From positions 31,967 through 95,966 of the forward strand of contig SBGD01000078.1 of the NCBI GenBank assembly GCA_006226775.1: DNA of 64,000 nt, given 5' to 3'. Shown one piece after another: positions 2,466 through 50,280 of this stretch. A program made the position numbers and the translations under genes. Each line of letters starts with the position of its first letter. Positions within the stretch are counted from its first letter, which is position 1. The stretch comes from Paracoccaceae bacterium (lineage in GTDB: Bacteria > Pseudomonadota > Alphaproteobacteria > Rhodobacterales > Rhodobacteraceae). The notes under the pieces were generated by a model. The model was given only the letters and a program-made list of their open reading frames with translations. It did no database searches and was not told the DNA's origin.

Positions 2466-3437
2466 TTACCAGCGGATAATCACCGCGCCCCAGGCCAGCC
2501 CGCCGCCGATCGCCTCGGTCACCACCAGGTCGCCCTGCTTGATCTGGCCGCGCTCGACCCCCACCGACAGCGCCAGCGGGATCGAGGCGGCAGAGGTATT
2601 GCCGTGGTCCTGCACGGTGACGACGACCTTGTCCATCGGCAGGCCCATCTTCTTTGCCGTGCCCTGGATGATGCGGATATTGGCCTGGTGCGGCACGATC
2701 CAGTCGACATCCGCGGTGGTCACCCCGGCCTTGTCGATCGCGGCCTGGGCGGTGGCGGCCAGTTTCTCGATGGCGTGGCGGAAGACCTCCTTGCCCTGCA
2801 TCCGCAGAAAGCCGGTGGTCTGGGTCGAGACGCCGCCATCGACGTAGAGCACGTCCTTGTGGCGGCCATCGGAATTGAGATCGGTGGCCAGGATGCCGCG
2901 GTCGTCGGAGGTGCCCTTGCCCTCCTGCGCCTCGAGGATCAGCGCGCCGGCGCCGTCGCCGAACAGCACGCAGGTGCCGCGGTCGGTCCAGTCCATGATG
3001 CGGCTGAAGGTCTCGGCACCGATCACCATCACCCGTGTCGCCTGGCCCGAGAGGATCAGCGCATTGGCATTGGTCAGCGCATAGGCGAACCCGGCGCAGA
3101 CCGCCTGCAGGTCGAAGGCATAGCCGCGGGTCATGCCGATATTGGCCTGCACCATGGTCGCCGCCGAGGGAAAGGTCAGATCGGCGGTCGAGGTGGCCAG
3201 CACGATGGCGTCGAGGTCATTGGCCTCCAGCCCGGCATTGGCCAGCGCGGCCTGCGCGGCCCGGGTGGCGAGGTCCGAGGTGGTCTCGCCCTCGGCGGCG
3301 AAGTGGCGGCGCTCGATCCCCGAGCGGGTGCGGATCCACGCATCGGAGGTGTCGAGCGACGCTTCGAATTCGGCATTTTCGACAATTCTCTCGGGCAGGT
3401 AATGCCCCACGCCGATGACAACCGCCCGTCGCGTCAT
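2466..3437 (-). CDS. fabH: 3-oxoacyl-ACP synthase III
   Basis: DTSDAWIRTRSGI, AVCAGF (catalytic Cys), PHQANIRI, GNTSAASIP. Confidence 0.97.
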   Translation of the reverse strand: MTRRAVVIGVGHYLPERIVENAEFEASLDTSDAWIRTRSGIERRHFAAEGETTSDLATRAAQAALANAGLEANDLDAIVLATSTADLTFPSAATMVQANIGMTRGYAFDLQAVCAGFAYALTNANALILSGQATRVMVIGAETFSRIMDWTDRGTCVLFGDGAGALILEAQEGKGTSDDRGILATDLNSDGRHKDVLYVDGGVSTQTTGFLRMQGKEVFRHAIEKLAATAQAAIDKAGVTTADVDWIVPHQANIRIIQGTAKKMGLPMDKVVVTVQDHGNTSAASIPLALSVGVERGQIKQGDLVVTEAIGGGLAWGAVIIRW

Positions 3438-4549
3438 GTCTGCTCTCCCGTGGCCTCGGAGGACGAGGCGGTCTGTGTCACCCTGGCCGCCGCCGCAATC
3501 CGGGCCGCGACCTTTTCGTTGAACCCCGAACGGGCAAGCTGAAAGGCCAGCTTGACCGCGGCGCTGACCGCGGTGGCATCCGCCGATCCATGGGACTTTA
3601 CCACAGTTCCGTTCAGCCCGAGAAACACTCCGCCATTGACCCGCCGCGGATCGATGCGTTTCTGCAACCGTCTGAGCGAGGGCAGCGCCAGAAGCGCGGC
3701 CAGCCGCGACAGGGGGGTGTACTTGAAGGCTTCCTTCAGGAAATCGCCGATCAGGCTGGCGGTGCCTTCGCCGGTCTTGAGCGCGATATTGCCGGTGAAG
3801 CCGTCGGTGACGATCACGTCGGCGCGGTTGCCGGGAATATCGCCGCCCTCGACGAATCCGACAAAGTCGAAACGCGCCGCCGCGGCATGTTCGCGGATCA
3901 GGTCATGGGCGTCCTTGAGTTCCTGCCGGCCCTTGTGCTCTTCGGTGCCGACATTGAGCAGCCCGACCCGCGGCATGTCGACCTGCAGGCCGTTGCGCGC
4001 ATAGGACGCGCCCATCAGGGCATATTGCAGAAGGTCATGGGCATCGGCGCGCACATCCGCACCGACGTCGAGCATGACGTTGAAGCCATGTTCGTTGCGC
4101 GAGGGCCAGAGCACGCCGATCGCCGGGCGATTGACGCCGGGCAGCTTGCGCAGGCGCACCATCGACAGCGCCATCAGCGCGCCGGTATTGCCGCAGGAGA
4201 CCGCGACCTTGGCCTCGCCATTGCGCACCGATTCCACCGCCGACCACATCGAGGTGCCCTTGCCGTTGCGCATCACCTGGCTGGGCTTGTCGCTCATCGA
4301 CACGACGCCCTGGGCATCGCGGATCTCGCAGCGGCCCCGCAGGTTCTTGCGCTTGTCGACCAGCGGGCGCAGCTGATCCTCCGGCCCGTGCAGGATGAAG
4401 GCCAGTTCGGGGTTCTTGCTGGCGGATTCGTCGCATCCAGCGACGACAGGGCCGGGACCGCGGTCCCCGCCCATGGCGTCGATCGAGAGGATAACCGTGC
4501 CGTCGCCGGCCCCGGTTTCCGCCGCAGTCTTGTCCATGCTCGCGGTCAT
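3434..4549 (-). CDS. plsX: Phosphate acyltransferase PlsX
   Basis: IDAMGGD, GNTGALM, LLNVGTEEHKG, DGFTGN, KSHGS motifs; lies between rpmF and fabH. Confidence 0.96.
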   Translation of the reverse strand: MTASMDKTAAETGAGDGTVILSIDAMGGDRGPGPVVAGCDESASKNPELAFILHGPEDQLRPLVDKRKNLRGRCEIRDAQGVVSMSDKPSQVMRNGKGTSMWSAVESVRNGEAKVAVSCGNTGALMALSMVRLRKLPGVNRPAIGVLWPSRNEHGFNVMLDVGADVRADAHDLLQYALMGASYARNGLQVDMPRVGLLNVGTEEHKGRQELKDAHDLIREHAAAARFDFVGFVEGGDIPGNRADVIVTDGFTGNIALKTGEGTASLIGDFLKEAFKYTPLSRLAALLALPSLRRLQKRIDPRRVNGGVFLGLNGTVVKSHGSADATAVSAAVKLAFQLARSGFNEKVAARIAAAARVTQTASSSEATGEQT

Positions 4550-4572
4550 CGAGGGGCCTTGCGTTGCAAGCC

Positions 4573-4779
4573 TCAGGCTGCGTCTTCGTCCAGCTCGATC
4601 TCGTCGGCAACGGCGATGACTTCGCGCTCGGCATAGTGGCCGCAGGCGGGGCAGACATGGTGCGGGCGCTTCAGCTCACCGCAGTTGTCGCATTCGTTGG
4701 GGTTGGCAGCGACCAGGGCATCGTGCGCACGACGGTTGTTGCGGCGCGATTTGGACACTTTATTCTGCTGAACAGCCAT
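4573..4779 (-). CDS. rpmF: 50S ribosomal protein L32 (Zn-ribbon type)
   Basis: [19 protein letters not shown]...[16 protein letters not shown]. Confidence 0.97.
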
Positions 4780-4948
4780 GGCTCAATCTCAAGTCTTTTC
4801 TATGGGGCACAGACATGCGCCCGCGGTTTCGGGTGGTTCCGGGCAGATACGCCCATATGGGCGGTATATACAACCCCAAATCTCTCAGAGGGCGCGAAAA
4901 TACGAGTTTCCGCCCGGGGTGCAAGCGATTCCCGCGACCCCCGCGCGA

Positions 4949-5518
4949 TCAGCCCTCGTCGCCCTTGTCCGAGAGCCTGTCGCGCAGCCCGGCAAGCCCG
5001 GCAAAGGGCTTGGTATCGGCCTCGCGCAGCGGTGTCTTGCCGGGCTCGGTCACCACCGTCTCGCCCAGGTCGGGCGCATCCGGCGCGCGGGGGTAGTCGG
5101 GGATCTCCAGCACCAGCGCCTCGACCATCACCGCCCAGGGGTCGATCAGCGCGCCCAAGGGCTCGATGGTGTCATCCTCGGGCATCTCGGTCTCCGATCC
5201 CGCCTCGGCCTGCGTCTCCCAGTCCGCCAGGAAGCGCCGCTCGACCTCGGCGTCGATCCGGGTGGTCACCGGGGCAAGGGTCTGCACGCAGGGCTGCACC
5301 ACCGTCGCGCCCAGGGTGGCGGTCAGCACGAAGTCGTGCTTGCCGGTGCCGCGGATCTCGCCGACAAAGCGCAGCTTGCGCAGGGCCGAGAGCCCGAGCA
5401 TCTCGGCCAGCACCGCGCGGGCGGGGGCATCCGGCACGATCTCAAAGACTTGCGGGCGGTTCTGCGGCAGGGCCGAAACCTGGAGGGCATGGGGCGACGT
5501 TTGACGGGAATGGGGCAT
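4949..5518 (-). CDS. YceD/DUF177 family protein
   Basis: C-terminal part of the long ORF, from MPHSRQ; VVQPCVQTLAPV, EALVLEIPDYPR, KPFAGLAGL; upstream of rpmF. Confidence 0.88.
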   Translation of the reverse strand: MPHSRQTSPHALQVSALPQNRPQVFEIVPDAPARAVLAEMLGLSALRKLRFVGEIRGTGKHDFVLTATLGATVVQPCVQTLAPVTTRIDAEVERRFLADWETQAEAGSETEMPEDDTIEPLGALIDPWAVMVEALVLEIPDYPRAPDAPDLGETVVTEPGKTPLREADTKPFAGLAGLRDRLSDKGDEG

Positions 5519-5605
5519 GAGCCTCGACGCTTCCTTTCTTGAACCGGGAAGAAACCTTCTGTAAGCGGGATAAAAGTCGGCGGTGAGCAATACAAGAGGG
5601 CAGCA

Positions 5606-6064
5606 ATGACAGGCATTACCAGAGCGCGGCGCGTGATCGTTGCTTTGACCTGCGCCGCGCTGTTGTCGGCCTGTGTCGCACAGTACCGCAACCATGGCTA
5701 CCTGCCCACCGATGACGAGTTGCAGAATGTCATTGTCGGCGTCGACACCCGCGATACCGTGGCCGAAAGCATCGGCGTGCCGGGCACCGGCGGCGTGCTG
5801 GAAGGCGGCAATTACTACTATATCGGCAGCCAGGTGCGCCATTACGGCCTGTTCGCCCCCGAAACGGTCGACCGCCAGATCGTCGCCGTCGAGTTCGACG
5901 ACAGCGGCGTGGTCGACAATATCTCGCGCTACGGGCTCAAGGACGGGCGGGTGGTGACGCTGACCCGCCGGGTGACCCAGGTGGGCGACGGCGACATCGG
6001 CTTCATCCGCCGGCTGTTCGGCAATATCGGCGGGCTCGACCTGAGTGGTTTCGGCAGCGACTGA
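5606..6064 (+). CDS. bamE: Outer membrane assembly lipoprotein BamE
   Basis: Lipobox LSAC, HGY.P, GVDTRDTV...G.P, SmpA/OmlA-like size and context. Confidence 0.88.
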   Translation: MTGITRARRVIVALTCAALLSACVAQYRNHGYLPTDDELQNVIVGVDTRDTVAESIGVPGTGGVLEGGNYYYIGSQVRHYGLFAPETVDRQIVAVEFDDSGVVDNISRYGLKDGRVVTLTRRVTQVGDGDIGFIRRLFGNIGGLDLSGFGSD

Positions 6065-6178
6065 CCCGGCCCCGGGCGCCGCAGGGCGGCCCCCCGCGGA
6101 TCCTGACGTGACGTCAGGCGGCCGGGCCGTCAGACTCGCCTGACGGGGTGGGGGATCGGAACTGAGGGCGGCATCGTC

Positions 6179-6934
6179 ATGACTGGACCGGGCAGAGGGC
6201 GCTACCTTGCACGCATGGCCGAAACGCCGGCCGAGGTCGAGGCCGCCCAGGCGCTGCGCCACCTGGCCTTTCACGGGCGCGCCGGGCTCGACAGCGACGC
6301 CCATGACGCGCTTTGCGCCCATGTGCTGGTCGAGGACCGGCGCGATGGCCGGCTGGTCTGCTGCTTTCGCATCCTGCCGCTGGCCGGCGGCGGCGAGATC
6401 GCCAAATCCTATTCCGCGCAATATTACGAGCTCTCCGCGCTGGCGGCCTATCAAGGCAAGATGGTCGAGATGGGCCGCTTCTGCCTGCACCCCGAGGTCG
6501 GCGACCCGGATGTGCTGCGCGCCGCCTGGGGGGCGATGACCTCCTATGTGGATGCCAACGCGGTCGACCTGCTGTTCGGCTGCACCTCGTTCCAGGGCAC
6601 CGAGGCGCGCCGGTACTACGACGCCTTCGCCATGCTGAAAGAGCGCCACCTCGGCCCGAAATGCTGGCTGCCGGCGGTCAAGGCGCCCAATGTCTTCCGC
6701 TTTGCCGCGCGTCTCAGGCGCAAGCCCGACATGAAGCTGGCCATGCGCCGGATGCCGCCACTTCTGCGCACCTACCTGCTGATGGGCGGCTGGGTCAGCG
6801 ATCACGCGGTGGTCGACCGGCAGATGAACACGCTGCATGTCTTCACCGGGGTCGAGATCGGGCGCATCCCGCCCGAGCGCAAGAAGCTGTTGCGCGCGCT
6901 GTCCCGACTTGACCATTTCGCGCCGCTTGCATAG
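6179..6934 (+). CDS. olsB: GNAT N-acyltransferase, ornithine-lipid synthesis OlsB-like
   Basis: AQALRHLAF, EMGRFC.HP, LFGCTSF.G, PPLLRTYL..GG.V...AVVD..NT.HV motifs. Confidence 0.75.
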   Translation: MTGPGRGRYLARMAETPAEVEAAQALRHLAFHGRAGLDSDAHDALCAHVLVEDRRDGRLVCCFRILPLAGGGEIAKSYSAQYYELSALAAYQGKMVEMGRFCLHPEVGDPDVLRAAWGAMTSYVDANAVDLLFGCTSFQGTEARRYYDAFAMLKERHLGPKCWLPAVKAPNVFRFAARLRRKPDMKLAMRRMPPLLRTYLLMGGWVSDHAVVDRQMNTLHVFTGVEIGRIPPERKKLLRALSRLDHFAPLA

Positions 6935-6943
6935 CTGCGGGGC

Positions 6944-8749
6944 ATGGCCCAGATACCCCTTCTCCAGCTTTCCGGCATCTCGCTCACCTTCGGCGGCAAC
7001 CCGGTCTTCGACCAGCTCGACCTGATCGTGCAGGAGCGCGATCGCGTGGCGCTTGTGGGCCGCAACGGCTCGGGCAAATCGACCTTGATGAAGGTCATGG
7101 CCGGCCTGGTCGAACCCGACCGCGGCACCCGGGTGGTGACCCCCGGCGCCAGCGTCGGCTACATGGAGCAAGAGCCTGACATGGCCGGCTTTTCCACCCT
7201 GGGCGACTTTGCCACCAGCGGGCTGGAGCCGGGCGAGATGTACAAGGTCGAACGCGCCGGCGAAGGGTTGAAATTCGACCCCGCCCGCCCGGTCGAGACC
7301 GCCTCGGGCGGCGAGCGGCGGCGCGCGGCGCTGGCCAAGCTGATGGCCGAGGCGCCGGAACTGATGCTGCTGGACGAGCCCACGAACCATCTCGACATCG
7401 AGGCGATCGGCTGGCTCGAGACCGAGTTGAAGGCGACCCGCGCGGCTTACGTCCTGATCTCGCACGACCGGGCGTTTCTGAATGAACTGAGCCGCGCAAC
7501 CCTCTGGATCGACAGGGGAATGGTACGGCGGCAGGAAAAGGGTTTCGTGGATTTCGAGGCCTGGCGCGACAAGGTCTGGGAAGACGAGGACATGGCGCGC
7601 CACAAGCTCGACCGCAAGATCCGCTCCGAGGCGCGCTGGGCCGTCGAGGGCATCAGCGCCCGGCGCAAGCGCAATATGGGCCGGGTGCGCGCCCTGGGCG
7701 AGTTGCGCGCCGAACGCGCCGCGCAGATCCGCCGCCAGGGCAGTGCCGCCATGGCGCTGGACAGCGGCCCGAAATCCGGCCGCAAGGTGATCGAAGCGGA
7801 AGGCATCACAAAGGCTTACGACGGCAAGCTCATCTGCCGCGACTTCTCGCTCAAGGTCCAGCGCGGCGACCGGGTGGCCTTTGTCGGGCCCAATGGCGTG
7901 GGCAAGACGACGCTGTTGAAGATCCTCATGGGCGAGGTCGAACCCGATGCCGGCAAGGTCACGCTGGGCACCAACCTGGTGCCCGCGGTCTTCGACCAGG
8001 CGCGGGCGCGGCTCGACATGAATGCCACGCTCTGGGACAACCTGACCGGCGACCCCGAGATGCGCGTCTCGGGCAAGGCCGACCAGGTGATGGTGCGCGG
8101 CCAGCCCAAGCACGTGGTCGGTTATCTCAAGGAATTCCTGTTCGACGAGGCCCAGGCCCGCGCGCCGATCCGCTCGCTCTCGGGCGGGGAACGCGCGCGG
8201 CTGCTGCTCGCGCGGATCATGGCGCGGGAAAGCAACCTTCTGGTGCTGGACGAACCGACCAACGATCTGGACGTCGAAACCCTCGATCTTCTGCAGGATC
8301 TGCTGGCCGATTATGACGGCACCGTGCTGCTGGTCAGCCACGACCGCGATTTCCTCGACCGGGTGGCGGAAACGACGATTGCCATGGAGGGCGACGGCAA
8401 GGTCACGGCCTATGCCGGCGGCTGGAGCGACTACCAGAGCCAGCGGGGCCGCGAGGCACCAGCGGATAAACCCGAGAAACCAAGGGTTTCCAAGCCGAAG
8501 GTGAAGCAGGAGAAGGCGGCGCAGGACGGGCTCAGCTTTACCGAGAAGCACCGACTGGAGGAATTGCCCGCGGTCATGGCGCGGCTCGAGGCCGAGATCG
8601 GCAAGCTCGAGACCCTGCTGGCCGATCCTGGGCTTTTCACCCGCGAGCCGGTGAAATTCAAGAAGGCGACCGAGGCGCTGGTCGAACGGCAGGGCAAGCT
8701 GGCGGCGGCCGAGGACGAATGGCTGATGCTGGCCGACAAGGCCGGCTAG
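6944..8749 (+). CDS. ABC-F family ATPase (Uup-like)
   Basis: Two Walker A motifs (GRNGSGKST, GPNGVGKTT), two SGGE signatures, no transmembrane segment, C-terminal coiled coil. Confidence 0.93.
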   Translation: MAQIPLLQLSGISLTFGGNPVFDQLDLIVQERDRVALVGRNGSGKSTLMKVMAGLVEPDRGTRVVTPGASVGYMEQEPDMAGFSTLGDFATSGLEPGEMYKVERAGEGLKFDPARPVETASGGERRRAALAKLMAEAPELMLLDEPTNHLDIEAIGWLETELKATRAAYVLISHDRAFLNELSRATLWIDRGMVRRQEKGFVDFEAWRDKVWEDEDMARHKLDRKIRSEARWAVEGISARRKRNMGRVRALGELRAERAAQIRRQGSAAMALDSGPKSGRKVIEAEGITKAYDGKLICRDFSLKVQRGDRVAFVGPNGVGKTTLLKILMGEVEPDAGKVTLGTNLVPAVFDQARARLDMNATLWDNLTGDPEMRVSGKADQVMVRGQPKHVVGYLKEFLFDEAQARAPIRSLSGGERARLLLARIMARESNLLVLDEPTNDLDVETLDLLQDLLADYDGTVLLVSHDRDFLDRVAETTIAMEGDGKVTAYAGGWSDYQSQRGREAPADKPEKPRVSKPKVKQEKAAQDGLSFTEKHRLEELPAVMARLEAEIGKLETLLADPGLFTREPVKFKKATEALVERQGKLAAAEDEWLMLADKAG

Positions 8750-9819
8750 ACCGGCCGGCGCGCCAGCGGCAGAAGGCGGCTCAAGAGCATCAGTTCCAGC
8801 ACCGTCAGCAGGATGCGCATGACGTGGAACAGCGAGACCAGCGCCGGGCTGGTGGCCAGGCCCAGCGCGATGATCGACATTTCGGTCACGCCGCCGGGCG
8901 CGAAGCTGATCAGCAGGACGAGGAAGGGCAGGCCGGTCACCTGTGCCAGCCCCCAGGCAATGGTCGCGCCGAGGATCAGCATGTAGCCGACCGAGACCAG
9001 CGCCAGCCCGACCGAGCGTTGCAGCAGCCCCGCGGTGATGCCGCGGAACCGCAGGCCGAGGCTGGCCCCGACCACCACCTGCGCCGCGGCGATCAGCCAG
9101 AAGGGCACATGCAGATCGACGAACCCCGCCAGCGTCAGCCCGCCGACCAGCAGGAGCGGCCCGGTCAATTGCCCCGCGGGCAGCCGCGCCAGCCGCGCCA
9201 GCGCCAGCCCGACGCCGCCGGCCACGATCACCAGCGCCAGCTCGGCCAGTTCGACGCTGGCCGGCGGCCCGCCGGGGACCACGCCCGCCGCACTGCCCAC
9301 CGGCTGGCCGAGCCAGAGCGAGAGACCGGTGGGAATCGCCGTCACCACCACGATGATGCGCAGGAATTGCTGGATGGTCAGGACCTGCACATCGGCGCCG
9401 GAGGATTCGCCCAGCAGGATGCTCTCCATCAGCCCGCCCGGCGTGCCGCTGTAAAAGGCGGTGGGCCGGTCGAAGCCGCCAATGCGGCGGAAAATCAGGT
9501 AGTTGCCGCCATGCGCCAGCGCGATGAACCCGGCCAGAACCGCGAGGAACAGGGGCAGATCGGCGAGCTGGTCGAGCAGGTCGGGCGAGACCTGGGTGCC
9601 GATCATCACGCCGATCATCGACACGAAGCCGGTGCGCAGCGGCATCGGGAAGCGATAGCCCTGCAACAGCCCGCCTTGGGTGCGCGCCACCAGCAGCGCC
9701 GAGGCGATCAGCGATCCCAGCATCCAGGGCATCGGCAGATGCGCCAGTTGCGCCAGAACGCCTGCGATGGCGCAGGCGACAAGCAGTCCGGCAGTGGTGA
9801 TCAACATGCGCAGGGTCAT
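8746..9819 (-). CDS. AbrB-family (AidB regulator/ammonia monooxygenase-like) membrane protein
   Basis: Duplicated hydrophobic halves with PMPWMLG, TPGGLMES and APGGVTEM motifs. Confidence 0.85.
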   Translation of the reverse strand: MTLRMLITTAGLLVACAIAGVLAQLAHLPMPWMLGSLIASALLVARTQGGLLQGYRFPMPLRTGFVSMIGVMIGTQVSPDLLDQLADLPLFLAVLAGFIALAHGGNYLIFRRIGGFDRPTAFYSGTPGGLMESILLGESSGADVQVLTIQQFLRIIVVVTAIPTGLSLWLGQPVGSAAGVVPGGPPASVELAELALVIVAGGVGLALARLARLPAGQLTGPLLLVGGLTLAGFVDLHVPFWLIAAAQVVVGASLGLRFRGITAGLLQRSVGLALVSVGYMLILGATIAWGLAQVTGLPFLVLLISFAPGGVTEMSIIALGLATSPALVSLFHVMRILLTVLELMLLSRLLPLARRPV

Positions 9820-31707: not shown

Positions 31708-34569
31708 TCATTCCGCAGGCTCCTTCCACTCGGCGCCATAGGCCAGCTTGTCCGGCGACGGCGGTTGGCTTGCATGACCCAAAGGCTCGAACAGCGGCTC
31801 GGTCCCGCCACTCTCGGCCTTCTCGATCTTGACCCGCAGGTCGAACCAGGCGGCCTGACCGGTCAAGGGATCGGAGTTGGAATAGCGATACCCGCCGCCC
31901 CCCTTGGGCAGCAATTCCGAAATCAGGTGGTTCAGCAGGAAGCCCTCGGTATTCTCCGGCGCATCCCCGTCCAGCCCCCAGGCCCCGCGGCGTTTGCCGA
32001 TGGCGTTCCAGGTCCAGACCGTGTGCCGGTTGACCCCCTCCATCAGCCGCACCTGGCATTTCACCCGGCCGAGATGCGACGAGAGCCAGACCCAGTCGTC
32101 GTCCTGCACCCCCAGATCGCGCCCCACCGAGGTATGCACATACAAACGGTTGGCCGCCGTGATCTGGCGCAGCCAGGCGTTTTGCGAGCCCCAGGAATGG
32201 TACATGTGCATCGGGCGCTGGGTGATGGCGTGGAGCGGGAAACCTTCGACCAGTTGCTCCTCGAAGGGCGGATACCAGAACGGCAGCGGGTCGAAATGCG
32301 CCTCGATCCGGGCGCGCGCGCGGTCGGGGGGCTGGCGGTCGCCGTGCCCTTGCGCGGCCAGCCGAAACTTCTGCATCGGCTCGGAATAAAGCTGAAAGAT
32401 CGTCGGCTCCGGCGACAGGCGGATGCCCTTCTCGATGGCCCAGTCGAGATAGCCGCGGTTGGCATGGCGGAAATAGGCATGGCCCGGGTCGAGCTTCAGG
32501 CCGAAATACGCGCCGTTCTCGATATAGCGGTCCAACTGGTCGGGGTTGGGATCGCCGACGCAGGCCTTGTCCGCGTTCTCACCCCGCCAGCCTGCCAGGG
32601 GGCCGATGCCGGGCTTGCGCTGGTGGTTGGTGATGTAATCGGGATAGCCGCCGGGGAACTTCGGCGTGCCGTCGGCATTGATGAACCCGGGCAGGTGCAG
32701 CCGCGCGCCCAACTCGATCAGCACCTCCTGGAAGCCGCGCACATCGCGGTCGGGCTGAACCACCGGATGACGGATCGCATCGGCCACCATGTCGGGCTCG
32801 GAAATCGGCCGGTCGAGCAGGGAAATGCAGTCCCAACGCTCAAGGTAGGTGGTGTCGGGCAGGATCAGGTCGGCAAAGGGCACGGTCTCGGAATAATAGG
32901 CGTCGGAATAGATGATCTTGGGGATCACGTAGGCGCCGGTGTCGTCTGTGGCGGTCAGCGCCTCCAGCGTGCCGCCGACATTCATCGAGGAATTCCACGC
33001 CATGTTCGCCATGTACATGAAAAGCACGTCGATGCTGTAGGGGTCTTTCTTCGCCGCGTTGTTGATCACCATGTGCATCAGCCCATGGGCCGAGATCGGC
33101 GCATCCCAGGAAAATCCCTTGTCGAGCCGCGAGGGGGTGCCATCCGCGTCGATCAACAGGTGCTCGGGCCCATGCGGAAAGCCCAGGTGCGGGCCGCCCA
33201 AGGGCATTTCCGGCTGGATCTGGCCGGGCGCGCCATGGGGCAGCAGGTTGGGCGGGGTCTGTTTGGGATAAGGCGGCTTGTAGCGGAACCCGCCGGGGCA
33301 ATCGATCGAGCCCAGAAGGATCTGCAGGATATGGATCATGCGGCAGGTCTGAAAGCCGTTGGAATGGGCGGAGATGCCGCGCATCGCGTGCATCGAGACC
33401 GGACGCCCGATCATCGTGTCATGCTTGCGGCCCGCCCAGTCGGTCCAGGGCCGGTCGAGCACGATCTCTTCGCGGAAGGCCACATGCGCCAGTTCCGCGG
33501 CGATCTTTCGCATCTGCTCGGCGGGCACGCCGGTGCGCTCTTCCACCGCCTCGGGGGTGTAGTCCGCGCCGAGGTAGCGCTCGGCCATCAACTCGAAGAC
33601 GGGACGCGCGCTGCGACCATCGGGCAGAGTGTGCGTGCCTGACAGGGATGGCTGAATGTCGGCGGCCTTGCCACTGCCGAAGGCGTCGGTGGCCTTGTCC
33701 CAGACCATCGGGTTGCCGTCCGCGTCGCGGGCAAAGAGCCCGTCGTCGGCCGCGCCCGGCGCCTCGATCACCAGCCAGGGCGCATTGGTGTAGCGCACGA
33801 GGTAGTCGAGGTCGATCTGCCTCGTGCGGAAGAGCTCGTGGATCAGCGCGCCGACAAACAGCCCGTCGGTGCCGGGGCGGATGCCGACCCATTCGTCGGC
33901 CACGGCATTGTAGCCGGTGCGGACCGGGTTGATCGAGACCACCTTGGCGCCGCGTTTCTTCAGCTTGCCGATACCGATCTTGATCGGGTTCGAGGCATGG
34001 TCCTCGGCCACCCCGAACAACATGAAGTATTTCGTGTAATCCCAGTCGGGATCACCGAATTCCCAGAACGCCCCGCCAAAGGTATACAGGCCCCCGGCGG
34101 CCATGTTGACCGAGCAGAACCCGCCATGGGCGGCAAAGTTCGGCGTGCCGTATTGCATCGCCCAGAAACCGGTGAGGCTCTGGCTCTGGTCGCGCCCGGT
34201 GAAGAAGGCAAGCCGCTTGGGATCGGTCTTGCGGATGGGGGCCAGCCAGCCGGTGGCGATCTCCAGCGCCTCGTCCCAGGAGATCTCCTCGAACTGCCCT
34301 GACCCGCGCGGGCCCACCCGCTTCATCGGCGCGCGCAACCGGGCGGGGGAATAATGCTGCATGATCCCGGCGCTGCCCTTGCCGCAGAGCACGCCCTTGT
34401 TGACCGGATGGGCGCGATTGCCCTCGATATAGCGGACCCGGGGCTTGCCGTCTGGCCCGTCCTTGAGATGCACGTCGATGCCGCAGCGGCAGGCACACAT
34501 GTAACAGGTGGTCTGTTTCACGCTGTCGCCGACCGGCGTGCTGAGCGCGATCTGGGGATCTGGCGGCAT
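31708..34569 (-). CDS. soeA: Cytoplasm-facing molybdopterin subunit of sulfite:quinone dehydrogenase
   Basis: From MPPDPQ: TTCYMCACRC, GVLCGKGSAG, HGGFCSVNMAA, MRGISAHSNGFQTCR; no Tat signal; followed by soeB/soeC-like genes. Confidence 0.9.
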   Translation of the reverse strand: MPPDPQIALSTPVGDSVKQTTCYMCACRCGIDVHLKDGPDGKPRVRYIEGNRAHPVNKGVLCGKGSAGIMQHYSPARLRAPMKRVGPRGSGQFEEISWDEALEIATGWLAPIRKTDPKRLAFFTGRDQSQSLTGFWAMQYGTPNFAAHGGFCSVNMAAGGLYTFGGAFWEFGDPDWDYTKYFMLFGVAEDHASNPIKIGIGKLKKRGAKVVSINPVRTGYNAVADEWVGIRPGTDGLFVGALIHELFRTRQIDLDYLVRYTNAPWLVIEAPGAADDGLFARDADGNPMVWDKATDAFGSGKAADIQPSLSGTHTLPDGRSARPVFELMAERYLGADYTPEAVEERTGVPAEQMRKIAAELAHVAFREEIVLDRPWTDWAGRKHDTMIGRPVSMHAMRGISAHSNGFQTCRMIHILQILLGSIDCPGGFRYKPPYPKQTPPNLLPHGAPGQIQPEMPLGGPHLGFPHGPEHLLIDADGTPSRLDKGFSWDAPISAHGLMHMVINNAAKKDPYSIDVLFMYMANMAWNSSMNVGGTLEALTATDDTGAYVIPKIIYSDAYYSETVPFADLILPDTTYLERWDCISLLDRPISEPDMVADAIRHPVVQPDRDVRGFQEVLIELGARLHLPGFINADGTPKFPGGYPDYITNHQRKPGIGPLAGWRGENADKACVGDPNPDQLDRYIENGAYFGLKLDPGHAYFRHANRGYLDWAIEKGIRLSPEPTIFQLYSEPMQKFRLAAQGHGDRQPPDRARARIEAHFDPLPFWYPPFEEQLVEGFPLHAITQRPMHMYHSWGSQNAWLRQITAANRLYVHTSVGRDLGVQDDDWVWLSSHLGRVKCQVRLMEGVNRHTVWTWNAIGKRRGAWGLDGDAPENTEGFLLNHLISELLPKGGGGYRYSNSDPLTGQAAWFDLRVKIEKAESGGTEPLFEPLGHASQPPSPDKLAYGAEWKEPAE

Positions 34570-43842: not shown

Positions 43843-44757
43843 TCAGCGGGTGAATTTGTTCAGGGCGCAGGCGATCTCGGCGCCCAGAAGGGCGTTGTTG
43901 CGCACCAGCGCGATATTGGCGGTGAGCGAGCGGCCCTCGGTCAGCTCGAAGATGCGCTGCAAGAGGTAGGGCGTGACATCCTTGCCAGCGATCCCGTGCG
44001 CCGCGGCATCGGCCAGCGCGCGGGCGATCACCGGCTCGATCTCGGCCCGGGCGATCTCGGCGGCCTCGGGGATCGGGTTGGCGACAAGCTGCCCGCCCGA
44101 AAGCCCCAGCGCGGCGCGCGCCAGGTGGGCGCGGGCGATGGTCTCGGCATCGTCCATCCGCAGCGGGGCCGCATGGGCCGACTGGCGCGACCAGAAGGCG
44201 GGAAAGGCGTCCTGGCCATAGGCGATGACCGGCACGCCGAAGGTTTCCAGCACCTCCAGCGTCTTGGACAGGTCAAGGATCGCCTTGGCACCGGCGGCGA
44301 CCACGGTGACATTGGTGCGGCTCAACTCCTGCAGGTCGGCGGAGATGTCGAAGCTCTGTTCGGCGCCGCGATGCACGCCGCCGATGCCGCCGGTGGCAAA
44401 GACGCCGATCCCGGCCTGGGCCGCGCCGATCATCGTCGCCGCCACCGTCGTCGCCCCGGTGCCGCCGGTGGCCAGGCAGACCGCCATGTCGGCGCGCGAC
44501 AGTTTCGCCGCGCCGCGGGTCTTGGACAGGCCTTCGAGCTGCGCCTCGTCCAGCCCGATGCAGAGCGTCCCCTCGATCACCGCGATGGTGGCCGGAACCG
44601 CGCCGCCTTCGCGGATCACCGCCTCGACGCCCTGCGCCATCTCGAGGTTCTGCGGCCAGGGCATGCCATGGGTGATGATGGTGCTTTCCAGCGCCACCAT
44701 CGGCGCCTTCTCGGCGCGGGCCTTTTCGATCTCGGGCGAATAACGGATATCAATCAT
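43843..44757 (-). CDS. psuG: Pseudouridine-5'-phosphate glycosidase
   Basis: VALESTIITHGMP.PQN, GATTVAATM, FATGGIGGVHRG, DISADL.EL, GKDVTPYLL. Confidence 0.93.
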   Translation of the reverse strand: MIDIRYSPEIEKARAEKAPMVALESTIITHGMPWPQNLEMAQGVEAVIREGGAVPATIAVIEGTLCIGLDEAQLEGLSKTRGAAKLSRADMAVCLATGGTGATTVAATMIGAAQAGIGVFATGGIGGVHRGAEQSFDISADLQELSRTNVTVVAAGAKAILDLSKTLEVLETFGVPVIAYGQDAFPAFWSRQSAHAAPLRMDDAETIARAHLARAALGLSGGQLVANPIPEAAEIARAEIEPVIARALADAAAHGIAGKDVTPYLLQRIFELTEGRSLTANIALVRNNALLGAEIACALNKFTR

Positions 44758-45637
44758 GGGGGGTCTCTCCTGAAACATAGCGCGCCGCGGCGGTCAGTGC
44801 CCGGTGCAGGGCGTTTGCACGGTCGGCGCCGCCGGCTTCCGCCGCCATATGTGCCGCCATGAAGGTATCGCCGGCGCCGGTGACCCGGGTGACCAGCACT
44901 TCGGGCGGCGATTCCGAAACCAGGCCCTGGGCATCGGCATCGGCGGTCAGCCCGCCGCCATCGGTGACCAGCGCGCGCCGCGCCCCGCGCGCCACCAGTG
45001 CCGCCGCGGCGGTCTCGGCATCGGCGAAATCGGTCTGGCAGAGGATCGCCGCCTCGGCGATATTGACATAGAGCAGCGCCCCGGGCCGGGTGACGAAGGG
45101 CATCAGCCGCTCGGCCTTGCCGGGCGAGGCCGGGGCGACGCGCAGATCGGCGGCGGCAAAGGCCGGATCGCGCGAGATCCGGCTCAACAGCGTCTGGGTC
45201 AGGTTGCCGTCCAGCGCGATCAGCCCGGCATAGGGCCGTGCGGCGCTGCCCAGCCGGCCGTCGATCAGCGGGCGCAGGATCTTGTCGTCCGCGGCCTCCA
45301 GCGAATGGGCATCGGCAATCGCCGCGATCATGCCGTTGGCGCCTTCGACCGCCATGTAACGGTCGGTCGGCAGATCCTCGGAGCGGTATATGTAGCGGCA
45401 GTCCAGCCCCATGTTCTCGCATTCCGCGACCAGCACATCGCCCAGCACGTCGCGGCCGACCGTGCTGAGCAGCGCGGGCTGCAAGCCGAAGCGGCGCAGG
45501 GTCATGGCGATATTGAGCGCCACCCCGCCGGGGATCTGGGTGATCCGGCCGGGCACATCGGATCCCTCGCGCATGACCGAGGCCGACCGCCCGATCACGT
45601 CCCAGAGTACCGAACCTATGCACAGGACATCCTTCAT
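44750..45637 (-). CDS. PfkB family carbohydrate kinase (pseudouridine kinase-like)
   Basis: From MKDVLCIGS: PGGVALNIA, DGNL, VTGAGDTF; coupled to psuG. Confidence 0.88.
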   Translation of the reverse strand: MKDVLCIGSVLWDVIGRSASVMREGSDVPGRITQIPGGVALNIAMTLRRFGLQPALLSTVGRDVLGDVLVAECENMGLDCRYIYRSEDLPTDRYMAVEGANGMIAAIADAHSLEAADDKILRPLIDGRLGSAARPYAGLIALDGNLTQTLLSRISRDPAFAAADLRVAPASPGKAERLMPFVTRPGALLYVNIAEAAILCQTDFADAETAAAALVARGARRALVTDGGGLTADADAQGLVSESPPEVLVTRVTGAGDTFMAAHMAAEAGGADRANALHRALTAAARYVSGETPHD

Positions 45638-45742
45638 AGGAAAGTGTTGTGGCGTGAAACTTTTTTCTCCGCAAGCCGTAGGTTTCGGTTGAAACGCGGC
45701 AGATGCGGCGCATTGTCTGACGCAACCGACGGGGAGAGACCG

Positions 45743-46846
45743 ATGAAACGACTGACCGCCTTGCTGGCCCTGCTCTGGGTAACCGGCGCTTCCGCCCATG
45801 AGGTGATGCCGACAATCGCCGATCTGAGTGTCGCCGAGGGTGCCGTGACGCTCGACCTGCGGATCAATGCCGAGGCCTTCGTGGCGGGCATCGACCTCGA
45901 CGGGCTGGAGGACACCAATGCCACCGAGGCCTCGGGCGATTACGACGCCCTGCGCGCCCTGCCGCCCGAGCAGATGCAGACCCGCTTTGCCCCGGTGGCC
46001 GCGCGCATCGCCGACCAGATCGGGCTGGACAGCGGCGGGCAGGCGCTGAGGCTCGAGGTCACCGGGATCGAGATCGGCCCGCTCGGCAATACCGCCTTCT
46101 CGCGCGAAAGCGCCCTTGGCCTGCGCGCCGATCTGGCCGGCAGCACGGCGCCGCTGGTGCTGTCCTGGCCCGAGGGCTACGGCACGCTGGTGCTGCGCCA
46201 GATCGGCCCGGAAGACGGCTATACCGGCATAATCGAAGGCGGCGGCACCAGCGATCCGATCCTGCCCGGCGGGGGTGACCCGAAAACCGGCTGGCAGGTC
46301 TTTGGCGATTACGTCCCGGTGGGCTTCGATCACATCCTGCCCAAGGGTCTCGATCATATCCTGTTCGTTTTGGGCCTGTTCTTTCTCAGCACCCGGCTGG
46401 CGCCGCTGCTGTGGCAGGTGACGGCCTTTACCGCGGCGCATACGGTGACGCTGGCGCTTGGCGCGCTGGGGGTGGTCACGGTGCCGGGCTCGATCGTCGA
46501 GCCGATCATTGCCGCCTCGATCGTCTATGTGGCGGTGGAAAACATCCTGTCGCCGAAGATGCACGCCTGGCGGCCGGTGGTGGTCTTCTGCTTCGGGCTG
46601 TTGCACGGGCTGGGCTTTGCCAGCGTGCTGGGCGAGTTCGGCCTGCCGGAGGACCAGTTCGTGCCGGCGCTGCTGGGTTTCAACGTCGGGGTCGAACTGG
46701 GCCAGCTGACGGTGATCGCCATCGCCTTTCTGGCCGTGGGGCTGTGGTTTCGCCGCAAGAGCTTCTACCGGCCCTATATCGCCGTGCCGGCCTCGGTGGT
46801 GATCGCGCTGGTGGGGGCCTACTGGTTCGTCGAACGGGTGATCTGA
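45743..46846 (+). CDS. HupE/UreJ family membrane protein with periplasmic N-domain
   Basis: From MKRLTALL...SAHE; GFDHILPKGLDHILF, FTAAHTVTL, FGLLHGLGFA, FNVGVELGQ. Confidence 0.88.
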   Translation: MKRLTALLALLWVTGASAHEVMPTIADLSVAEGAVTLDLRINAEAFVAGIDLDGLEDTNATEASGDYDALRALPPEQMQTRFAPVAARIADQIGLDSGGQALRLEVTGIEIGPLGNTAFSRESALGLRADLAGSTAPLVLSWPEGYGTLVLRQIGPEDGYTGIIEGGGTSDPILPGGGDPKTGWQVFGDYVPVGFDHILPKGLDHILFVLGLFFLSTRLAPLLWQVTAFTAAHTVTLALGALGVVTVPGSIVEPIIAASIVYVAVENILSPKMHAWRPVVVFCFGLLHGLGFASVLGEFGLPEDQFVPALLGFNVGVELGQLTVIAIAFLAVGLWFRRKSFYRPYIAVPASVVIALVGAYWFVERVI

Positions 46847-47889: not shown

Positions 47890-47912
47890 TGTGGATAACT
47901 GAGTTATCCACA
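47890..47912. promoter_or_regulatory. Inverted pair of perfect DnaA-box 9-mers forming an 11-1-11 palindrome
   Basis: TGTGGATAACT-G-AGTTATCCACA in an AT-rich patch (42 of 120 nt G+C over 47821-47940 by hand count). Confidence 0.6.
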
Positions 47913-48005
47913 AGCTATAGTTGAAATAAGATTTGAAATGCCCGGTAAGGCAGAGAATTCTGGGTGGGCAATCAACGCCAACCAACACCAACCCAGGAGA
48001 TAACC

Positions 48006-48173
48006 ATGCTGGCACTTGTTCAAGAAACCCTTAACGAAACCGAAGAGCTGGTCATCGAGACCACCGAGATCTCGACCGGCGATCACATCGACACGATGAT
48101 GTGCGCTTCCATCGACGATGGCACCGACATGTTCGACGGTGACCAGGTCCAGGCGATGATGTGCGCCTCGTAA
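48006..48173 (+). CDS. 55-aa acidic peptide with duplicated MMCAS motif (candidate RiPP precursor)
   Basis: RBS AGGAGA upstream; MLALVQETLNETEELVIETTEISTGDHIDTMMCASIDDGTDMFDGDQVQAMMCAS; synonymous differences between the two repeats. Confidence 0.75.
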   Translation: MLALVQETLNETEELVIETTEISTGDHIDTMMCASIDDGTDMFDGDQVQAMMCAS

Positions 48174-48235: not shown

Positions 48236-49336
48236 ATGTCGAACGTTGTCTATTTGAATGTGCCCGGCCCCAAGGAGCGGCGGGCCGCGCGCAGCGGCGC
48301 GCTCATCCGCAGCTTTGCCGCGCATCGCCGCGGTCCCGAGGACGTGTTCTGGCTCAAGGAAAATGCCGAGCTTCTGAACATCCTCGAAAACACCGGCCAG
48401 GCGGTTCCCGAAACCCTTCTGGAGCCCTACGCCGCATTCTACGAGAATGCGCGCGACCGGCTGGCCTTCTTTCCGCAGTATTACCGCTTCATCCTGTCGC
48501 TCACGCTCGATCTCGAAGCCCTTGGTCTGCGCGGGGATTCGGCGGAAGCCATGTGTGCCTGGGCGCAGCGCATGGATCTGGCCGGCGGCGAGACCTCCGA
48601 TATCCAGCGCCTTGAAGCCTATCGGCTGCTTCAGCGCCGCGGGTTTGATCCGCTGGACGACCAGGGTGGCGCCGAAGCGCGTCTGCGTGACTTCATTGCG
48701 CATCCGGAACGCTTCGCATTGCCCAACAAAAAGGCTGCCTTCGAGCTCACCCACATCGTATTCTACCTGTCGGAATATGGCAGGAAAGACCCGGGTCTCG
48801 GGCCGGATGCGCTGCGGTCGCTGGAGAACGCGGGCATTTTGGCTTTTCTTGACGGGAACCTCGATCTTCTTGCTGAGATCTGCGTGGCGATGCGCTATGC
48901 AGGGTACAACCCTTCCGGGATTTGGGAAGATTGGGTCGCTCGCAAGATGAAAGACTTTCACATCACCGAACTGAACGACGGCGGCCCGGGCCAGCGGCCG
49001 GTCGCGGATGCCTATCACGAATACCTGACCGGATCCTGGCTGGCCGGCACCAAGGGCGAGGCGCTCTTTGCCGAGGTGCCGGTCTGCCGGCAGGGCAGCG
49101 GCCAGCGGCTGGCGATCAACCGCCCTGCAGGCCAGAAGGGCGCGTTGCGCGAGATCTCGGTGCAATTGTTCCGCATGGGGGCAGAGCGTTGCGAGGCCTG
49201 GTCGCCAATGCGCGCCCGGATCGACGCCGCGCTGACCGCGCCGGCGCGCCAGCGACTGGAACAGGCGGAAGCCTCGACCTGCCAGTTCGAGGCCTTTTTC
49301 GAAGATTTCGCGCGGGCCCAGAAGGTGAGTGCATGA
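48236..49336 (+). CDS. Uncharacterised 366-aa helical protein, candidate peptide-modifying enzyme
   Basis: RBS GGAGG; motifs FELTHIVFYLSEYG, DLLAEI, DAYHEY; no recognised catalytic family. Confidence 0.75.
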   Translation: MSNVVYLNVPGPKERRAARSGALIRSFAAHRRGPEDVFWLKENAELLNILENTGQAVPETLLEPYAAFYENARDRLAFFPQYYRFILSLTLDLEALGLRGDSAEAMCAWAQRMDLAGGETSDIQRLEAYRLLQRRGFDPLDDQGGAEARLRDFIAHPERFALPNKKAAFELTHIVFYLSEYGRKDPGLGPDALRSLENAGILAFLDGNLDLLAEICVAMRYAGYNPSGIWEDWVARKMKDFHITELNDGGPGQRPVADAYHEYLTGSWLAGTKGEALFAEVPVCRQGSGQRLAINRPAGQKGALREISVQLFRMGAERCEAWSPMRARIDAALTAPARQRLEQAEASTCQFEAFFEDFARAQKVSA

Positions 49337-50280
49337 CCGCTGCTCTGAACAGACTGAGCCTGCCTGTTCTCGGCACCATATTGGTCGTGATCTACACCGT
49401 GCTGATCACCTTTTCCGATGCGCTGACAAAATACCTGGCGCAATTTTACGAAGCACCGCAGCTTCTGTCGATCGTGGCACTGCTGATCGCGCTGATGTCG
49501 CTGGGCTCGGGACGGATCGGCAAGCATCGCACCCGCGGCAGCCTGCGCACAAGCTGTCCCGGCACCATGGCGCTGCGCGCGGGGCTGACGGTTCTGGCGA
49601 CGGTGATGTTCTTTCACGCGCTGGCCACGCTGGTCTTTGCCCAGGTCTTTTTGTTCATCGCGCTGGTGCCCCTGTTCTCGGCGCTGATGTCCGGGCCCAT
49701 CCTGGGCGAGAAGGTGCGGTTTTCGGTCTGGATCGCGCTGGCCTGCGGCTTTGCGGGCGTGTTGTGCATGGTCAAGGTGGACTTGTCCGCCATCACACCG
49801 GGTCACATCAGTGCCTTCATCGGCGCGGTCTCGGGCACGGCGTCGATCGTGCTGGCGCGCTACATCGGCCGGTACGAGGACAATTCACTGGCCCAGGTCT
49901 TCTATCCGCAAACGGCGGTTTTCCTGTCGATGGTGCTGCTGGCACCGGCGGGCTGGCAGCCGATGCCGCTCTTTGACCTGATGCTGGCCGTGGCCTGCGC
50001 GGTGGTGCTGTTTTCCGCGCGGCTGTTGCTGGTGATCGCGCTGCGGCACCTGACGGCCTATGCGGTGACGCCGCTGATGAACCTGCAATTCGTCTGGATG
50101 GTGGTGATCGGCTTCGTGGTCTTCCGCGAAGTGCCGGAAGCCAGTACCTTTTTCGGCGCGGTCATCGTCATGGTCTCGGGCGGCTACCTGATCTTCGACC
50201 AGCACCAGCGTGGCAGGGAAATCGCGGCAAAGCCCGCCTCCTGGGGCAGCAAGCCGGTGCTCAGCCGCGCGGCCAACTGA
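49333..50280 (+). CDS. DMT/EamA family transporter
   Basis: About 10 hydrophobic helices, two EamA halves (LGEKV...W; F.EVP...GA..VM.SG); ATGA overlap with upstream gene. Confidence 0.9.
   Translation: MTAALNRLSLPVLGTILVVIYTVLITFSDALTKYLAQFYEAPQLLSIVALLIALMSLGSGRIGKHRTRGSLRTSCPGTMALRAGLTVLATVMFFHALATLVFAQVFLFIALVPLFSALMSGPILGEKVRFSVWIALACGFAGVLCMVKVDLSAITPGHISAFIGAVSGTASIVLARYIGRYEDNSLAQVFYPQTAVFLSMVLLAPAGWQPMPLFDLMLAVACAVVLFSARLLLVIALRHLTAYAVTPLMNLQFVWMVVIGFVVFREVPEASTFFGAVIVMVSGGYLIFDQHQRGREIAAKPASWGSKPVLSRAAN

Follow-up and report, generated by a model that had tools for sequence, protein, structure and literature searches.

A DUF6902 protein encoded beside a repeat precursor peptide is probably an enzyme that tailors a ribosomal peptide and a relative of the DUF6895 family

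We analysed a 64,000-nucleotide stretch of DNA from a Paracoccaceae bacterium (positions 31,967 to 95,966 of contig SBGD01000078.1, assembly GCA_006226775.1), here called the window, and within it the open reading frame (ORF) at 48236-49336 on the plus strand. The encoded protein belongs to the DUF6902 family, and its relatives and gene neighbours indicate that it is probably a tailoring enzyme of a peptide made on the ribosome and modified after translation (RiPP), related to the DUF6895 family. The explanation we favour, and to which we give an even chance, is that a RiPP cassette of three genes has this protein as its only tailoring enzyme, that the enzyme converts L- to D-residues by epimerisation, and that the product leaves the cell through a transporter of the drug/metabolite transporter (DMT) type. 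An earlier, sequence-only reading of this ORF had proposed an enzyme with three catalytic motifs in an alpha/alpha-barrel, the broad fold class of LanC cyclases and prenyltransferases, and a chemistry directed at peptide thiols. The motifs and the peptide substrate of that proposal gained support in the present study; kinship with LanC enzymes and the thiol chemistry did not.

The ORF at 48236-49336 reads through 366 codons with no internal stop and carries a GGAGGA ribosome-binding site 8-13 nucleotides 5' of its start; the gene and the position of its three motifs stand as first described. The protein matched Pfam DUF6902 (PF21843) with 454.1 bits against a gathering threshold of 27 (E 3.7e-136), residues 1-361 covering positions 1-351 of the 351-position profile. 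A second, partial match to DUF6895 (PF21836; 82.7 bits against a threshold of 23.8, E 3.8e-23) joined residues 28-226 to profile positions 19-230 of 289. When 76 homologues were scanned against Pfam at E up to 10, PF21836 was matched by every one of them, and only DUF6902 and DUF6895 recurred. DUF6895 is the sister family of DUF6902 and not the best assignment for the 366-residue protein, for which NCBIfam holds no model.

More than 1400 homologues were found. Among the matches listed, all that carry an organism name, with one exception, come from the Roseobacter group, and the nearest is from Marinovum (75-79% identity). The cassette was present, almost always as a single copy, in 38 of 151 sampled genomes of the same family (one per genus). 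The DUF6902 family is compact, since a scan of a representative library of 1.84 billion proteins returned only 164 clusters; a homologue search with the DUF6895-like protein P0264 returned only P0264 itself. The searched literature contains no mention of DUF6902 or of the cassette peptides. The system of precursor, DUF6902 protein and DMT exporter is therefore undescribed in that literature, and DUF6902 is catalogued in Pfam with no described function.

Conservation was measured in a close set of 76 homologues (49-84% identity), a divergent set of 26 members (21-67% identity) and two proteins that are genuine DUF6895 members, taken from other proteobacteria (loci L128 and L129; 144 and 139 bits to PF21836). 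All three motifs lie on the plus strand: FELTHIVFYLSEYG at 48740-48781 in helix 8 (residues 169-182, with E170, H173, Y177, Y181 and G182), DLLAEI at 48863-48880 at the start of helix 10 (residues 210-215, with D210 and E214), and DAYHEY at 49007-49024 at the start of helix 12 (residues 258-263, with D258, Y260 and H261). The polar positions invariant in the 76 homologues are K41, E42, E45, R84, D92, E94, E119, D122, Q124, R125, E127, E170, H173, D210, E214, D258, Y260 and H261, and at least 90% of the divergent members keep K41, E45, R84, D122, H173, D210, E214 and H261. The motifs singled out by the sequence-only reading are thus the conserved core of the protein, with H173, D210/E214 and Y260-H261 invariant in the close set, and in these alignments their conservation is far beyond chance. 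H173, D210, E214, Y260 and H261 are the only polar residues common to DUF6902 and both genuine DUF6895 proteins, which also keep an aromatic residue (F/Y) at 177 and at 181 as well as G182. Because no other polar residues are shared in this way, we read the three motifs as marking the DUF6895/DUF6902 superfamily as a whole. K41, E45, R84 and D122 are not retained in both DUF6895 proteins and likely form a substrate-binding set; D258 is specific to DUF6902.

The gene upstream of the DUF6902 gene points to a substrate. At 48006-48173 on the plus strand lies an ORF with an AGGAG ribosome-binding site and homologous repeat peptides at related loci; it encodes a 55-residue precursor made of a leader and two cassettes, GDHIDTMMCAS and GDQVQAMMCAS, each with one cysteine, and it is the presumed substrate. 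Nearly all related loci with enough upstream sequence carry such an ORF, a leader followed by 2-15 cassettes that ends 40-110 nucleotides before the DUF6902 gene. The 467 cassettes of the related loci follow the consensus T-G-[D/E]-[A/G]-[T/V]-[E/Q]-[M/L]-F-[S/T]-S-G-S, the end of the precursor is an exact cassette end in most precursors, and cassette position -2 is without exception a Ser, Thr or Cys. Leader and cores beside an enzyme, kept across taxa, are the layout of a RiPP system; the modification itself is predicted.

Distant members of the superfamily stand next to small peptides as well. Distant DUF6902 genes (L082-L085) sit just after small peptide genes, and those at 22-23% identity directly follow peptides of 61-64 residues ending in ...DDDKYFAIMK and ...DSNKYVFIIK, with stop and start codons overlapping; farther upstream, one of these distant loci has a third peptide gene, whose product ends in ...DDGKYCFILK. 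The two genuine DUF6895 genes likewise lie directly 3' of small peptide genes, whose products have cores such as ...LVGPWFVL.... Because these distant DUF6902 and DUF6895 genes also follow peptide genes unrelated to the repeat precursors, we conclude from gene order that the superfamily consistently partners small ribosomal peptides. The peptide action proposed by the sequence-only reading is strongly supported by this gene context, the repeat precursor upstream and the peptide genes beside distant relatives.

The peptides beside the distant DUF6902 and DUF6895 genes form a different family, whose leader is similar to ..L[VL]..LV.AG[IV].. and whose cores are hydrophobic and aromatic (..DDKYFAIMK, ..LVGPWFVL..). 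Their genes lie at 3862-4047 in L082, 4810-5004 in L083, 4577-4762 in L084, 7104-7304 and 7446-7703 in L128, and 8437-8868 in L129, where a single 143-residue ORF holds two leader-core units. In L128 (G428:C13:16000-32500) the genuine DUF6895 gene lies in a non-lasso RiPP-like cluster at 3119-9576, together with genes for an MFS transporter, an O-methyltransferase, a papain-like C39_2/C70 peptidase, a 223-residue unknown protein, the two tandem precursors and a 364-residue unknown helical protein. DUF6895 is thus not confined to lasso-peptide clusters.

It might be argued that the protein belongs to small-molecule metabolism and that the small ORF beside it is incidental, since the cassette is flanked by the housekeeping genes xth and erpA and its transporter is of a small-metabolite type. 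We consider this very improbable. The adjacency of precursor and enzyme persists in nearly all related loci while the cassette sequences vary, and unrelated peptide families stand beside the distant DUF6902 and DUF6895 genes, in two cases with overlapping stop and start codons.

AlphaFold2, run with the 76 sequences, gave an almost entirely helical model (predicted local distance difference test, pLDDT, 91.4; predicted template-modelling score 0.90), in agreement with the largely helical sequence noted by the sequence-only reading. Besides 12 helices (residues 18-272), the model has a small element of two strands and, at the C-terminus, a part made of four helices. This four-helix part (49142-49312, plus strand; residues 303-359) is specific to DUF6902, is less conserved, and is missing from the 332-residue DUF6895 protein of L128. 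Within the 12-helix domain (48269-49075, plus strand; about residues 12-280), mean conservation alternates: it is high in helices 2, 4, 6, 8 and 10 (0.96, 0.91, 0.83, 0.97 and 0.87), which bear most of the invariant residues, and lower in helices 1, 3, 5, 7, 9 and 11 (0.64, 0.57, 0.63, 0.67, 0.72 and 0.61); helix 12 has a value of 0.66. In AGE enzymes the inner ring of the (alpha/alpha)6 barrel is formed by the even-numbered helices (PMC6333288), and the alternation seen here is plausibly the inner and outer ring pattern of such a barrel. Most of the conserved polar residues (R84, D122, D210 and H261) are at or near the N-terminal ends of even helices in the model and would lie together at one mouth of it.

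Structural searches gave partial matches. A truncated model of residues 1-280 (pLDDT 90.0) improved the Foldseek partial matches, still at E 0.08-0.6. Two translocon chains (8b6l_P and 9n9j_P2) scored slightly higher (probability 0.99, template-modelling (TM) score 0.46-0.48) than the complement C3b chains 2icf_B, 5fo7_B and 8ovb_B (TM 0.42-0.48, probability 0.72-0.95, E 0.2-0.6), which are the best identifiable matches by probability and TM. C3b contains the TED domain, which we take to be an alpha/alpha barrel. The full model found nothing significant in the viral BFVD collection, and a sequence search of the PDB with the 76-member profile found no match at E up to 10. The alpha/alpha-toroid class named by the sequence-only reading is therefore plausible, given the 12 helices, the ring-like conservation and the C3b matches, although no Foldseek match was significant (best E 0.05-0.08). 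The structural check it had proposed likewise gave a confident helical model but no significant PDB match. We infer a toroid-like fold to which no solved structure is closely related.

The protein might simply bind the repeat peptide, as a non-catalytic helical-repeat chaperone, immunity protein or intracellular receptor, a view that would suit its weak Foldseek matches to repeat proteins (ARM, TPR, 14-3-3) and to PrgX, a peptide receptor; nor was a cofactor-binding motif found. Nevertheless, the His, Asp-Glu and Tyr-His set persists in members as distant as 21% identity and extends to DUF6895, as is typical of catalysis rather than binding; the title of one paper presents a DUF6895 member as an enzyme; and Pfam finds no DNA-binding or membrane domain in the 366-residue protein. 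We therefore regard a purely binding role as unlikely.

A possible kinship with LanC cyclases and prenyltransferases, whose fold class the sequence-only reading had named, was examined with profiles built from genomes, 18 sequences for AGE and 8 for LanC-like proteins, compared by hhalign. The DUF6902 profile aligned to the LanC-like profile with a probability of 0.1-0.2% and to AGE (PF07221) with 0.3-3.6%, against 48.7% (E 1.8e-4) for the positive control of AGE versus LanC-like. In the Pfam scan of the 76 members, at E up to 10, there was no match to LANC_like, Prenyltrans, haem-oxygenase-like or metalloenzyme families. The zinc ligands of LanC are a conserved Cys-Cys-His set; in the 76 homologues no cysteine is invariant and C216 alone is nearly so. 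We thus rejected membership of the LanC-like family (PF05147), with no profile match, no conserved Cys-Cys-His set and no dehydratase partner, and membership of the AGE superfamily, given the low hhalign probabilities. The haem-oxygenase-like family PF14518, named on one UniRef cluster, was also rejected; the members without a Pfam match to it include that cluster, P0058, and no haem-oxygenase-like protein was among the 50 best Foldseek matches of either the full or the 1-280 model.

These comparisons bear on the thiol chemistry that the sequence-only reading had inferred, in which a LanC-like or prenyltransferase-like barrel enzyme would act on the cysteine of the MMCAS cassettes. The N-terminal domain is toroid-like, the host cassettes hold one cysteine each, and a nucleophile (Ser, Thr or Cys) always occupies cassette position -2. 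However, 441 of the 467 cassettes of related loci read F-[S/T]-S-x-x and have no cysteine, the three-gene cassette has no dehydratase gene, and neither the hhalign and Pfam comparisons nor the cysteine pattern resembles a LanC enzyme. LanC-type thiol chemistry is largely refuted at the family level, and for the present protein we hold it to be extremely improbable. What DUF6902 shares with LanC-like cyclases is the broad alpha/alpha toroid fold class and a peptide substrate; it differs in profile similarity, zinc-ligand set and dehydratase partner, and in that most of its substrates have no cysteine.

Based on these results, we propose the following sequence of events for the three-gene cassette of repeat precursor, DUF6902 protein as sole dedicated tailoring enzyme, and DMT exporter. 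The N-terminal ~270 residues would form a 12-helix double ring resembling an (alpha/alpha)6 toroid, with the conserved even helices lining its centre. His173 of helix 8, Asp210/Glu214 of helix 10 and Tyr260-His261 of helix 12 would make up the catalytic centre, and K41, E45, R84 and D122, with several Arg, may keep the acidic cassette in place, G-[D/E]-x-x-x-[M/L]-F-[S/T]-S-G-S in general and GD....MMCAS in the host. By acid/base catalysis a C-alpha proton would then be removed and put back, which would epimerise one residue per cassette from L to D, after which other proteases would free the cassettes and the DMT transporter would export the small product. Epimerisation is favoured because the only characterised relative, a DUF6895 member, is a lasso-peptide epimerase according to the title of the paper that describes it (Shi et al., ACS Catal 2026, as cited in PMC13352647 and PMC13453073), and because alpha/alpha-barrel sugar epimerases use a similar principle, the AGE enzymes working by deprotonation and reprotonation inside an (alpha/alpha)6 barrel (PMC6333288).

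Known systems resemble this proposal in part. The AGE sugar epimerases share 12 helices with DUF6902, whose conserved even helices are presumably the inner ring, and complement C3d/TED is represented by the C3b chains among the best partial structural matches. Unlike in these barrels, no Foldseek E value is significant, and the substrate of AGE is a sugar whereas that of DUF6902 is a presumed peptide, so that we speak of resemblance and not of membership. The fold of MslH, a calcineurin-like metallo-fold, is probably unrelated. MslH, from MS-271 biosynthesis, is similar in function, being described as a metal-dependent lasso-peptide C-alpha epimerase with acid/base catalysis (as cited in PMC13352647), the catalysis proposed here for DUF6902; in contrast, MslH-type and other metalloenzyme families are absent from the Pfam matches of the 76 members. 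DUF6895 is the closest comparison. It is homologous over residues 28-226, shares the H173, F/Y177, F/Y181-G182, D210, E214 and Y260-H261 signature, and has small peptide genes directly 5' of its genuine members. DUF6902 differs by its own invariant K41, E45, R84 and D122, by the extra C-terminal four-helix part, and by its partners, a multi-cassette repeat precursor and a DMT exporter with no further RiPP gene.

Several observations weigh against epimerisation in a toroid. The Pfam match to DUF6895 ends at residue 226, before H261, and the epimerase activity of DUF6895 is known here only from a paper title. The full model found nothing significant in the PDB by Foldseek (best E 0.05), the TM scores to C3b are below 0.5, and the predicted fold may be a novel one and not a toroid of the classical type. 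An epimerase alone leaves the excision of the cassettes unexplained. DMT exporters usually carry small metabolites, and this exporter type hints at a product smaller than a 12-mer. Finally, two His residues with carboxylates could equally be a metal site.

The last point leads to the main rival of the epimerase, a metal-dependent maturase in which H173, D210/E214 and H261 bind Fe, Zn or Mn and which oxidises, cyclises or cleaves the cassettes, for instance at the invariant Ser/Thr/Cys that stands two residues short of the cassette end, freeing a small exportable metabolite. The two His and the Asp/Glu look like a set of metal ligands, 11 acidic residues are invariant in DUF6902, and position -2 of the cassette is constantly Ser, Thr or Cys. 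Furthermore, cassette excision is needed and DUF6902 is the sole enzyme gene, with no protease gene beside it; a small-metabolite-type DMT exporter follows in 62 of 78 loci; and the UniRef cluster P0058 is named 'Iron-containing redox enzyme'. Against this, the 76 members, P0058 included, match no metalloenzyme or haem-oxygenase-like family in Pfam, no such protein is among the 50 best Foldseek matches, and the only characterised relative carries the name of an epimerase in the title of its paper. We judge a metal-dependent maturase to be possible but doubtful. The LanC-like thiol enzyme, the non-catalytic binder and the enzyme of unrelated metabolism are all much less likely than either the epimerase or the metal-dependent maturase.

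Variation among the cassettes offers a view of substrate recognition. Enzymes paired with cassettes of the MMxxS type (MM[C/S]xS), as opposed to F[S/T]SGS, form a single clade in the enzyme tree, and this clade switches otherwise near-fixed sites: L120T, L123I, T159R, F/Y198N and Q207G (~48593-48856). T120, I123 and G207 adjoin D122 or D210. The substitutions suggest substrate contact or a specificity switch, within a single clade in which such a signal is confounded by phylogeny. No enzyme positions were found to co-vary with the TSL/M or SGL cassette types, both of which recur in separate branches.

Downstream, the TGA stop of the DUF6902 gene shares ATGA (49333-49336) with the ATG of the next gene (49333-50280, plus strand), which encodes an EamA/DMT-family transporter (PF00892, E 2.9e-14), the presumed exporter; an EamA homologue stands directly 3' of DUF6902 in 62 of 78 related loci. 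In the window the only neighbours of the cassette are xth and erpA, with no other RiPP gene inside it. The same arrangement is found elsewhere, the cassette of precursor, DUF6902 and EamA genes adjoining xth in 58 of 58 full-length related loci and erpA in 54 of 58. The sequence-only reading had noted more A/T-ending codons than in flanking genes. This is correct: the GC content of third codon positions is 0.766 in the DUF6902 ORF, some 2.4 standard deviations below the 0.861 +/- 0.039 of the window's 45 coding-like ORFs. The value is not a sign of recent horizontal transfer, which we rejected because the locus is syntenic in 58 of 58 related genomes. The DUF6902 locus is old and vertically inherited, and not an island.

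Upstream of the precursor gene, at 47890-47912, lies an inverted pair of DnaA-box-like 9-mers, TGTGGATAAC-TGA-GTTATCCACA. The two halves of this TGTGGATAA pair are perfect, mutually inverted copies of the DnaA-box consensus, and a sigma-70-like promoter match, TGGATA-18-TATAGT (47892-47921, plus strand; consensus match only), overlaps the pair. The 9-mer stands 5' of the precursor gene in 56 of 70 related loci, frequently in two copies spaced by about 76 nucleotides, and almost never elsewhere in the related 9-kb loci. The 4.58-Mb genome has only 20 copies of it, and outside this pair none of the listed copies has another one within 1 kb. We take the pair for a candidate conserved operator, at which DnaA or another regulator would bind.

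Elsewhere in the window, at 44750-46846, a long ORF of the minus strand overlaps one of the plus strand, and each has a real Pfam domain: a PfkB kinase domain at ~44776-45637 on the minus strand and a HupE/UreJ domain at ~46310-46753 on the plus strand. The true PfkB and HupE/UreJ genes are probably much shorter than the listed high-GC ORFs.

A more far-reaching interpretation, which we offer as rather unlikely, joins these elements. DUF6902 would be a new RiPP maturase whose fold has no solved homologue, a cofactor-independent toroid-like enzyme that turns up to 15 cassettes into many copies of a D-residue or rearranged peptide, exported by the DMT transporter under the control of the DnaA-box-like operator. 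Few marine heterotrophs are as abundant or as well studied as the Roseobacter group. If the interpretation is true, the cassette would give the marine members of this group a secreted signal that is widespread and linked to the cell cycle or to replication. Already on the favoured explanation, one enzyme with a multi-copy precursor would be an unusually simple system for new peptide chemistry, and the residues common to DUF6895, H173, D210, E214, Y260 and H261, narrow the candidates for its catalytic centre.

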